64,000 bases of DNA. It comes from Butyrivibrio sp. XPD2006 (GTDB lineage Bacteria; Bacillota; Clostridia; Lachnospirales; Lachnospiraceae). Below are positions 51,001 to 54,000 of the stretch, piece by piece (position 1 is the stretch's first letter; every line of letters begins with the position of its first letter). Where the stretch lies: the NCBI RefSeq assembly GCF_000420865.1, contig NZ_ATVT01000004.1, positions 217,718 to 281,717 of the forward strand, read 5' to 3'. The position numbers are program-made.

Positions 51001-54000
51001 AACAAAGAGTATACAGCTCTGGAAGCCGAGAATGCTAAGATCAAGGCGGACCAGGAGGCCTACGCAGTTGAAGGCATTGTGAGAGCATATAACAACTTAA
51101 ATGTAGCTCTTGTTGAAGCTTGCGCAATGGCACAGATGGATCCTAAGACCCTCATGGCAAGGGCATTCATGAACATCGGAGAAAACGCTGATAAGATCGG
51201 TACATTCAATATGACACCTGATCTTCTTCAGACAATAGCAAACGGAATCGGAGAGAACCTGGTTAAAAAACAGGCATAAGTTTTAGGAGGCGGACATGGC
51301 TGATAGGGGAATGAACAAGGTAGTTCTCATTAAGAGACGCACCAGATATGAAGAACTAAAAAGGCGCTACAACACTGTAGAGCAGGCGAGATTTTATATA
51401 GAGCATCTGGGCGCTGATTTTTCGGACTACGAGAGAGAGGATAAAGTTTACAACATGGTCCTTGATCAGGTAAGAAGCTGTGTCCGCCATGTAGCAAGGC
51501 TCCAGGAGATAGACAGGGAGTACATTCCCAACATGATCTTCGGAGAAAAAGACATCGTTATCGCCGTAGGCCAGGACGGACTTGTGGCAAACGTCATGAA
51601 GTACCTGGATGGCCAGCCCCTCATAGGAGTAAACCCCGATCCCGCAAGGTGGGACGGGGTGCTGCTCCCCTTTGAAGCAGGGGACATAGAGAAGATCCTC
51701 CCCACAGTTATAGATGGGAAATACAGTGCCAAAGATGTTACAATGGGAAAGGCAGAATCTAAGGATGGACAGGTTCTTTACGCAGTAAATGATTTCTTTG
51801 TAGGCGTTGAGAATCATTCGTCTGCAAGATATCACATAAATTACAGAAATCGTATTGAAAATCAGTCATCATCGGGTATCATTATTTCAACGGGTTTTGG
51901 AATGACCGGCTGGCATAAATCCGTAATGGCTGAGTTTAAGGGAATGGCAATGGCCTTCGGTCTTGGAACTGTCAGAGAGCCTGTATACGACTGGAGCGAC
52001 AAGAGCCTTACTTTCCAGGTAAGGGAACCTTACCCCAGCCGCTTCACTCAGGCGGATATCGTATATGGAAAAATTGGAGAGAAGGAAGATCTGATACTCA
52101 CGTCTGACATGAGTGAAAAGGGAGTTGTCTTTTCCGACGGAATTCTTGATGACGCCATCGAATTCAACGCGGGAATGCAGATAAAGGTCGGGGTTGCAGA
52201 GCGCGTGGGAAGGCTGGTTACAGCATGAGTAATATGAATTATGGGAGAATGGTATGAGATCAGTATTTGAAGAACAGGTAGCAGTCGCTCAATGGCTTAT
52301 GCATCCGAGCGAATTAGGAAAAATGCCAAAAGATGTAAGATTTACTAAGCAGTTCACGACAGCAGACGGCATAGAATGCATGATTTTTAAATTCAAGAAA
52401 TCGCTTTTATCGCCGTGGCTTTTAGCTATAGCTAGTGATTCAGGGATATTCAGTGAGCAGCAGAAGTATAATCCTGCAACAGAGATTGAAGATGCAACAA
52501 AGCTGGTAGAATTTTTAAAACAGTACTGGCAGAACAAGGCTAAAGAACAGACTGACAGAGAAGAAAAAGCAAAAGGAGCAGGCGTGTTTGCTGCGTTTGC
52601 GCTTTTGAAGGAAGCGACCTGGAATGCTTTGGAATTTGAAAAAGCATTCCAGGATGAATGGGGAATTACACTTTCCGACAGTGAATCTACTGAGTCGGGA
52701 ACTAAGGCATACTCCGTGCCGGAGTTAGGCGCCAAGGCTATTCTGGCAATTACACTTGTTGAAGCGTCCGTGCCCGGTGGGGAGGCAGAATACAATGCGC
52801 AGTACAATTACTTATGGAAAGATGCTGTACAGGTTGCCAAGTCGCATAAGGCACATTTGATCGTCTCGGTTTTGGGAGCAGATACACCTAAAGGTGGAGG
52901 AGCGCTATTTGCTATGGCATTATCCTCAATCTGTCACAATGAGAATACTTTGGGCATTTACTACAACAATGTTGTTGTTCAGCCTAACTATATTTTTGCC
53001 GGTGCTGAGTTTCTTAAGATGAAGCAGTTTCCGGTGCTGTCACTGGTCTGGATTGGGATTGTTCAGTCAGAAAATGGTATAAGTGGCTATACTACAGGAT
53101 TAACTAATCTTGGAAAAGATGAAATAGAAATAGTAAATGTGAGAAAGAGCCCTAATGAGATTCGTGATTTCCTTCAAAACATTGCCTCATATGTAATTGA
53201 AGAAGACGTTATTCTTCACGACGGTGAAACCATAGGTGCAGATAATACACAGCGACTAAAAATAGTAAAGAGCGCAGGGGTCAATGTGAAGGGCGAGAGC
53301 CTGAAGATCCTGTATCAATAAAGCGTAGGGATATGGGGATTATGTATTAAGTAAAAAGGAGGGTTATCTTATGTTAGAGGTTGGAACTAAAGCTCCGGAG
53401 TTTGAACTCCCGGATCAGAACGGAGAAATGCATGCACTCAAGGACTACAGAGGCAAGAAGGTAATCCTGTATTTTTATCCCAAGGACAATACTTCCGGAT
53501 GCACCAAGCAGGCCTGTGGTTTTTCTGAGAGATATCCTCAGTTTACGGAAAAGGGCGCTGTTGTACTGGGAGTAAGTAAAGATACTGTAGCGTCACATAA
53601 GAAATTTGAGGAAAAGTATGGTCTTGCTTTTACGCTTTTAGCTGATCCTGAGCGTAAGGTAATTGAGGCTTATGATGTCTGGAAAGAGAAGAAAAACTAT
53701 GGAAAGATATCCATGGGCGTAGTAAGGACAACATATCTGATCGATGAAGAAGGCATCATCATCAGGGCTAATGACAAAGTTAAGGCAGCAGACGATCCGG
53801 AAAAGATGCTTGGAGAACTGTAATGAGGATAATCCTTTCCCCCGCCAAGAAAATGAATGTTGATACCGATAAGCTTGAGTGTCAGGGATTGCCTGTGTTT
53901 CTGGAGCAGACACAGGAAATTCTTGATTGGCTTTTGTTGCAATCTCATGAAGATCTGCAAAAGCTCTGGAGCTGTAATGACAGCATAGCTGAGCAGAATT

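Follow-up and report, generated by a model that had tools for sequence, protein, structure and literature searches.

We examined a 64,000-nucleotide (nt) stretch of Butyrivibrio sp. XPD2006 (RefSeq assembly GCF_000420865.1, contig NZ_ATVT01000004.1, positions 217,718 to 281,717), referred to here as the window, for a gene which a first-pass annotation had described as a paralogue of NadK, the bacterial kinase for nicotinamide adenine dinucleotide (NAD), with a GGDG to GQDG substitution. The gene encodes a NADK2/NADK3-like kinase and directly follows a gene for an SPFH/Band-7 protein, with an NrtR-like regulator gene further upstream. The features of the gene pair, in window coordinates, are the following:

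50041–51279, + strand: SPFH/Band-7 partner gene, 412 amino acids (aa), Pfam Band_7 1.9e-10
51285–51290, + strand: Shine-Dalgarno sequence AGGAGG, 5 nt ahead of the kinase ATG
51296–52228, + strand: NADK2/NADK3-like kinase gene, an open reading frame (ORF) of 310 aa with start ATG at 51296
51569–51583, + strand: catalytic-loop variant G92-Q93-D94-G95-L96, within VIAVGQDGLVANV, the counterpart of GGDGT in NAD kinases
51626–51643, + strand: G-V-N-P-D-P, aa 111–116, the counterpart of C5orf33 "motif 1" PX-GXN(T/S)DP; NADK2 has GVNTDP
51782–51805, + strand: AVNDFFVG, aa 163–170, with the NE/D short motif N165-D166, aligned to the NE of NADK2 and NadKs
51887–51922, + strand: STGFGMTGWHKS, aa 198–209, conserved region II in its NADK2-type form, with W206 aligned to NADK2 W319

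The kinase and its SPFH partner

The hallmarks of the NadK fold that had been claimed for 51296–52228 were borne out. All three quoted motifs (VIAVGQDGLVANV, AVNDFFVG and STGFGMTGWHKS) are present in the kinase ORF, and the G-to-Q and T-to-L changes in the GGDGT loop can be read directly as GQDGL. The AlphaFold2 (AF2) model of the kinase has a predicted local distance difference test score (pLDDT) of 96.1 and the two-domain fold of NAD kinases, with an N-terminal alpha/beta domain and a C-terminal beta-sandwich; its best Foldseek matches are NADK2 structures.

The affiliation to bacterial NadK, on the other hand, had to be revised, as the kinase is nearer to NADK2/NADK3 (C5orf33). Using E. coli NadK as a phmmer probe, no match was obtained in the six-frame translation of the window, kinase ORF included, and no canonical nadK was found in the window by this search. 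The single kinase sequence matched human NADK2 in the PDB at 5e-8, and with a profile built from 67 family sequences the E-value there was 8e-22 for human NADK2 and between 1e-8 and 5e-3 for canonical NadKs. Because of these matches the relationship to NAD kinases is certain, though the similarity is too weak for routine annotation, and the family belongs with NADK2/NADK3 (C5orf33) and not with bacterial NadK. From bacterial NadK/PpnK it is set apart by pairwise similarity that is undetectable, by scores below the cut-offs of the NAD kinase models, and by the replacement of TPTGSTAY.

In the C5orf33/NADK3 branch, Ser and Trp replace Asp189 and Tyr202 of Ppnk (S306 and W319 in human), and the branch further carries PX-GXN(T/S)DP, S-G-X(C/M), GGDG and NE/D motifs (Ohashi et al., PMC3535332). 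S192 and S193 of the window kinase, which reads SSSG...TGW, occupy the Ppnk Asp189 position as in C5orf33, and these serines together with W206 align with NADK2 SSG...W and are conserved in 180–183 of the 185 homologues aligned. Motif 1 reads P-L-I-G-V-N-P-D-P, with Pro where T or S is expected. The family resembles human NADK2 (C5orf33) and plant NADK3 in its N-terminal strand with a T-R-Y/L-E segment, the GVN(T/P)DP motif, an SSG...TG-G---W region II with the nicotinamide-stacking Trp, the Ser for Ppnk Asp189 and an insertion after the Trp. It differs in that its insert falls far short of the dimerisation domain found in animals and in that the GGDGT loop of the branch is not kept; moreover, the window kinase is bacterial and lies in an operon with an SPFH gene. 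In the NADK2-NAD+ structure, D161 is catalytic, W319 lies on the nicotinamide, K76 is near the diphosphate and H191 stacks on the adenine (PMC9245612). By sequence alignment only, these residues correspond to D94, W206, R14 and V122 of the kinase, so that three of the four NADK2 contacts with NAD appear to be kept, the nicotinamide one included; the R14 position is R or K in 159/185.

GQDG had been presented as a substitution in a single protein; instead, it proved to be part of a family signature. An exhaustive search of 1.84 billion cluster representatives (clusters at 50% identity) returned 1931 relatives at E ≤1e-3, 948 at ≤1e-10 and 249 at ≤1e-30. Among the best 150 representatives the loop is GQDG in 79, GPDG in 33, GRDG in 9 and GGDG in 2. 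We counted residue conservation in the alignment of 185 homologues, where 125 sequences have Q at position 93, 31 have P and 14 have R, with Gly rare, while the surrounding residues hardly vary (G92 185/185, D94 180/185, G95 184/185, L96 183/185 and N99 183/185). Because of these counts the family loop is G-[Q/P/R]-D-G-L-x-x-N. Conservation is similar elsewhere in the protein: N113 is present in 182/185, N165 in 180/185 and D or E at 166 in 182/185, followed by S192 (182/185), S193 (180/185), G194 (183/185), G202 (184/185), W206 (183/185) and S209 (183/185); R243-E244 and D281-G282 are conserved in about 174/185 each. Compared with Butyrivibrio sp. NC2007, the closest genomic relative at 91% identity, the ratio of non-synonymous to synonymous substitution rates (dN/dS) is 0.09 in the kinase gene and 0.04 in the SPFH gene, which indicates purifying selection. 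Such conservation and selection fit a presumably active enzyme whose loop has been remodelled, and not a pseudo-enzyme in decay. Whether known NAD kinases use polyphosphate or ATP correlates with the residue that follows GGDG, which is T, S or N (PMC8553519); since this position is an invariant Leu in the loop consensus, phosphate-donor handling probably differs from that of known NAD kinases.

The SPFH partner is a divergent Band_7 protein that no NCBIfam model fits. It comprises an SPFH domain (about aa 1–166), a long helical hairpin (aa 168–350) and a small conserved C-terminal region. Its AF2 model, for which database homologues were used, has a pLDDT of 77 and places helices at 168–260 and 271–350, a hairpin of about 180 residues, and the best Foldseek matches are HflK/C, flotillin, stomatin, erlin, prohibitin, QmcA and MVP. 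No transmembrane (TM) segment was found in the protein, as the maximum 19-residue Kyte-Doolittle mean is 1.43 and lies inside an SPFH strand (family median 1.44). Family members normally have about 340 aa; the SPFH protein of the window and its nearest relatives exceed this by about 70 aa of additional coiled coil. This extra part (window 50700–51000, about aa 225–320) is rich in Glu and Lys with EKQEKE-like repeats, and at the DNA level it holds only a short 12-nt tandem repeat (50763–50788).

The pairing of the two genes was examined in 84 related loci, 80 of which came from species-representative genomes and 4 from other look-ups; individual loci are given below by their L-numbers. An SPFH homologue lies immediately upstream of the kinase on the same strand in 83/84 loci, often with a 4-nt overlap, and the sole exception has a contig end 308 nt upstream of the kinase. 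A reciprocal search starting from SPFH homologues gave the same kinase pairing, in Geobacter and Desulfatibacillum. Over the 84 loci the pair spans Firmicutes, Proteobacteria, Planctomycetota, Verrucomicrobiota, Spirochaetota and others, including Lachnospiraceae, Paenibacillus, Clostridium, Cupriavidus, Collimonas, Rhizobium, Treponema and Ignavibacteria. Apparent fusions of the two proteins were considered as evidence of interaction and rejected as weak: among the family members, labelled with P-numbers, P0244 and P0245 have Arg-rich, frameshift-like tails and P0194 has a hydrophobic C-terminal extension.

The SPFH fold relatives matched here build rings or cages around partner enzymes, and from these fold matches we infer that the SPFH protein may scaffold, sequester or gate the kinase. 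As in HflK/C-FtsH, QmcA-YbbJ/NfeD and vault MVP-PARP4, the SPFH domain is followed by a long coiled coil and the fold matches are to cage-formers, and the tight coupling of two genes recalls stomatin-NfeD operons. Unlike in these SPFH cage/enzyme pairs, the SPFH protein has neither a TM anchor nor an NfeD partner, and its partner is a nucleotide kinase. Two further arrangements with SPFH-related genes were observed. In Geobacter (L090 2900–3907 and L091 1235–2281, Geobacter sp. AOG1), the SPFH-kinase pair is closely preceded by a ClpP/SDH-type serine protease-like gene with a weak likeness to NfeD1b_N, echoing the classical stomatin-NfeD operon; no homologue of it was found in the other 84 loci. 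In other Butyrivibrio genomes (L002–L004 at about 9100–10980; L003 9281–11171), two adjacent Band_7 genes lie about 3 kb downstream of the module.

The regulator gene and the operator-like sites

Upstream of the SPFH gene we identified the following features:

49068–49883, + strand: NrtR-like regulator gene, 271 aa, Pfam NUDIX 3.8e-11 and NrtR_WHD 4.1e-10, both above cut-offs
49895–49928, + strand: terminator-like hairpin followed by a T-run, 3′ of the regulator gene
49941–49969, + strand: Sigma-70-type promoter TTGACA-17 nt-TAATAT for the SPFH-kinase operon, 10/12 matches
49948–49964, no strand assigned: operator-like palindrome 1, AGTAG-TAAATTG-CTACT, between and over the -35/-10 elements
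49987–50003, no strand assigned: operator-like palindrome 2, AGTAG-CAAATAG-CTACT, downstream of the -10 element

The NrtR-like partner proposed for the kinase is therefore real, but it is not its direct neighbour, as the SPFH gene intervenes, and among the related loci an NrtR-like gene is present in only 43/84, placed upstream, downstream or divergently. The regulator consists of an N-terminal Nudix domain with a nearly intact Nudix box (GGFIKKDETAYQAASRKLYEEAGV, RE changed to RK) and a C-terminal NrtR winged-helix domain. The NCBIfam model of the ADP-ribose-responsive repressor matches it at 1.8e-34, below the model's cut-off, and its best PDB matches are 2fml, AraR 5bs6 and NrtR 3gz5. A small gene for a TSCPD-domain protein (window 48819–49067) ends 6 nt before the start of the regulator gene; since the gap is only 6 nt, the two may be co-transcribed. 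This pairing was seen elsewhere only in the closest relative, L005, and the TSCPD gene, present in 1/84 loci, was rejected as a part of the module.

The hairpin, promoter and overlapping palindromes succeed each other in this order within the 157-nt spacer between the regulator and SPFH genes, and the two palindromes are the only exact AGTAG-N7-CTACT matches in the 64 kb. A tandem pair of such sites is also found upstream of the SPFH gene in L001–L006 and L008, whereas L009 and L010 have one exact site and an imperfect second, and L016 a single site, giving 10 related loci in all; in one operator-bearing locus the regulator gene lies beyond the kinase gene. In these Butyrivibrio and Treponema loci the arms are invariant and the centres are variable and A/T-rich. 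A simple palindrome scan gave no common motif outside the Butyrivibrio/Treponema clade. Both palindromes most likely serve as binding sites for the adjacent NrtR-like repressor. The arrangement resembles the NrtR regulons described by Rodionov et al. 2008 (PMC2330246) in the combination of Nudix and winged-helix domains, in palindromes with a 7-nt centre lying over the promoter and in the link to NAD-related genes; it differs in its half-sites, AGTAG/CTACT here versus the GT-N7-AC core there. The same study already noted an nrtR-draG association, and term searches of it found no operon of an SPFH gene with a NADK2-like kinase gene. Nor did full-text literature searches that combined SPFH with NAD kinase, NrtR or Nudix give any description of the gene pair.

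Distribution and gene neighbourhood

At least 575 matches to the family were obtained among 185,579 species genomes, patchily distributed across phyla. An exact copy of the window kinase was met only on short metagenome contigs. Members are located on Rhizobium megaplasmids, on Treponema saccharophilum pTS1, on secondary replicons of Ralstonia and Cupriavidus and on mobilisable plasmids; in R. etli CIAT 652 pC, a divergent Nudix gene is followed by the SPFH and kinase genes. In Proteus mirabilis, a canonical nadK whose product is 74% identical to E. coli NadK occurs together with a complete cassette of Nudix, SPFH and GQDG-kinase genes in two records of chromosome size, and a Kitasatospora replicon likewise has a canonical nadK and a family member together. 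No copy was found in E. coli genomes and no family member in 50,697 phage records. From the plasmid-borne copies and the coexistence with canonical nadK it follows that, at the family level, the kinase is an extra NAD-kinase homologue. This agrees with the earlier view of it as an accessory homologue, not the housekeeping enzyme. The family differs from bacterial NadK, beside whose genuine gene it occurs in Proteus and Kitasatospora, in being accessory, patchy and repressor-controlled.

The regulator, SPFH protein and kinase of Treponema (Spirochaetota) are 71–80% identical to those of Butyrivibrio (Firmicutes; L001, L007, L010, L012 and L087 compared with the window), and the Treponema copies keep the same AGTAG-N7-CTACT operators. 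This identity and the common operators suggest that the entire cassette has recently passed horizontally between rumen bacteria. Cassettes of Gammaproteobacteria, with Nudix, SPFH and kinase genes, stand right beside tetR-tet(H) or tet(J) (L093 2094–6828, Proteus mirabilis H63; L089 and L088 5200–8850). Small tet plasmids of Pasteurellaceae, Psychrobacter and uncultured bacteria carry only the 3′ 25–48% of the kinase gene, and pAST2 and pALWED1.1 have a truncated SPFH gene. It looks as if the cassette was originally the neighbour of tet(H)/tet(J) on the chromosome and was carried along in part on their mobilisation.

Among 142 genes flanking the module only three functions were recurrent, namely ADP-ribosylglycohydrolase (ARH; 6 loci by clustering), nicotinate phosphoribosyltransferase (PncB; 5 loci) and Tpt1/KptA (3 loci). 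Because of these recurrent functions, the evidence for an association with NAD and ADP-ribose metabolism does not depend on the homology of the kinase itself; the link to this metabolism, first suggested by the NrtR-like partner, is thereby upheld. A dense cluster was seen in L078, where an ARH fused to a cREC (cyclic-phosphate-processing receiver) domain (6881–8320) is joined by two further ARH genes as well as PncB, Tpt1/KptA and the SPFH-kinase pair. The module is adjoined on the same strand, in about 11 Firmicutes loci, by a protein of about 670–700 aa that combines an uncharacterised N-terminal part of about 400 aa with an S-adenosylmethionine (SAM)-methyltransferase domain (L006 and L008 6936–8930, L011 7606–9660, L014 3191–5206, L024 7948–10047, L029 2863–4956, L041 2832–4946 and L053 2484–4946); no copy of it was found within the window.

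Downstream of the kinase in the window, a DUF4261 gene (52254–53321) starts 25 nt past its end, followed by a gene for a Bcp/AhpC-type peroxiredoxin (53371–53823) and the peroxide-stress gene yaaA (53823–54575), with no terminator-like site between any of them. Co-transcription of these three genes with the operon is possible in this organism; elsewhere the arrangement is not kept, and DUF4261 was rejected as a partner of the module since it is present in 0/84 related loci.

Possible function of the SPFH-kinase operon

The explanation that we consider best, to which we give about an even chance, is an accessory, NrtR-repressed operon which would combine a soluble SPFH scaffold with a NADK2/NADK3-type NAD(H) kinase having an altered donor loop. 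The conserved unit is a two-gene operon, the SPFH gene first and then the kinase gene, with the regulator gene often as third. The kinase appears to retain the catalytic Asp, the Asn of the NE/D motif, a basic residue at the NAD-diphosphate position and the nicotinamide-stacking Trp. From these four features, the likeliest activity of the kinase would be the binding of NAD(H) and phosphorylation of the adenosine 2′-OH, yielding NADP(H). NAD(H) is preferred here as the substrate mainly because of the three apparently kept NADK2 contacts, among them that to the nicotinamide. The change of the donor loop from GGDGT to G-[Q/P/R]-D-G-L-x-x-N would alter how the phosphate donor is handled. The SPFH protein, anchor-free and with its long coiled coil, could build a cage or ring for the scaffolding, sequestration or gating of the kinase. 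In the window the pair would be transcribed from its own promoter, with the NrtR-like repressor acting at the overlapping palindromes, and a rise in a NAD-breakdown product such as ADP-ribose would then lead to a higher expression of the operon.

Several findings weigh against this explanation. The kinase scores only 14.5 bits with Pfam NAD_kinase (PF01513; cut-off 25.5) and 16–28 bits with the NCBIfam NAD kinase models (cut-offs 211–493), and NCBI labels the family as "sugar kinase". The family has not retained the canonical GGDG; where position 93 is Pro, a backbone NH in the phosphate-binding turn is lost, and the adenine-stacking H191 of NADK2 is replaced by Val122. As for control, half of the loci lack the regulator, and NrtR-family regulators can sense other ligands, such as arabinose in the case of AraR. 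One apparent SPFH-kinase fusion, P0160, is without the first strand of the kinase and may be an artefact.

The same changes of the active site bear on the alternative that the kinase acts on another NAD-derived nucleotide (ADP-ribose, ADP-ribose-1′′-phosphate or Appr>p products, nicotinic acid adenine dinucleotide or a signalling nucleotide) in the processing or recycling of ADP-ribose. The altered donor/acceptor loop and the loss of H191 would fit such a substrate, as would neighbours that make or release ADP-ribose derivatives, that is the ARH genes, Tpt1/KptA and the single ARH-cREC fusion, and the SAM-methyltransferase-domain neighbour hints at a further small-molecule modification. However, it is hard to see what the nicotinamide-stacking Trp, kept in 183/185, would do with ADP-ribose, a compound that known NAD kinases leave unphosphorylated (PMC8553519), and the NAD salvage enzyme PncB is a recurrent neighbour as well; we regard this main alternative as possible, but rather doubtful. 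Loss of GGDG and the strict pairing with a structural protein could also suggest a non-catalytic sensor of NAD(H) or nucleotides that regulates SPFH assembly, a role which the first-pass annotation had considered. Against it, the catalytic Asp is present in 180/185, and G92, G95, L96, N99, N165, S192–G194, G202, W206, R243-E244 and D281-G282 are conserved at 93–100% (D94, N165, W206 and other site residues at 97% or more), which is typical of an active site and not of a decayed one; with the dN/dS of 0.09, a sensor is quite improbable.

The patchy occurrence across phyla, on megaplasmids and mobilisable plasmids, and the horizontal transfer suggested by the 77–80% identity of Butyrivibrio and Treponema copies and their common operator would suit a conflict or stress module, in which an ADP-ribose-sensing repressor frees the SPFH-kinase pair during phage attack or the action of an ADP-ribosylating toxin, and NAD+ is converted to NADP+ or protected. 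The combination of a Nudix-helix-turn-helix protein with ARH is similar to the ARG-centric systems, for which a role against viral ADP-ribosylation has been proposed (PMC9503650). Yet PADLOC had no match for the SPFH protein or the kinase, none of its defence families recurs among the 142 flanking genes, which are mainly housekeeping or catabolic, the phage records held no homologue, and the slow evolution of the genes (dN/dS 0.04–0.10) contrasts with the rapid change typical of conflict systems, so we hold this role to be improbable. That the family member is its organism's only, housekeeping NAD kinase is the least credible proposal and very improbable: the window holds no canonical NadK and IMG calls the relatives "NAD kinase", but patchiness, a location on plasmids in Rhizobium, Treponema, Ralstonia and Cupriavidus, canonical nadK alongside in the Proteus mirabilis and Kitasatospora records, and control by a repressor all speak against it.

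The NrtR-repressed operon of an SPFH scaffold and a NAD(H) kinase can be taken further, in a form that we consider speculative and unlikely as a whole. A closed, vault- or HflK/C-like SPFH cage would enclose or gate the NADK2-type kinase and make up an ADP-ribose-induced device that converts or shields a part of the NAD(H) pool under NAD-consuming stress. A nucleotide kinase would then be a new class of SPFH client, and the system would be a prokaryotic counterpart, possibly even the evolutionary source, of mitochondrial and peroxisomal NADK2/NADK3.

According to reviews, bacteria have a single cytosolic NAD kinase (PMC8553519, PMC9245612). The family described here is a second, widespread lineage of the NADK2/NADK3 type in at least 575 species from many phyla, with a redesigned catalytic loop and an obligate SPFH partner, which has been annotated merely as "sugar kinase" or "hypothetical". 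If active, it would allow the NADK2 branch, still poorly understood, to be studied in a tractable bacterial system and would help to test how much change the GGDG loop tolerates. It would also give TM-less SPFH proteins, whose bacterial roles are largely unknown, a defined and genetically linked client, and add a new output to NrtR/ADP-ribose sensing. Should another NAD-derived nucleotide be the one that is phosphorylated, the product would be a new metabolite or signal.

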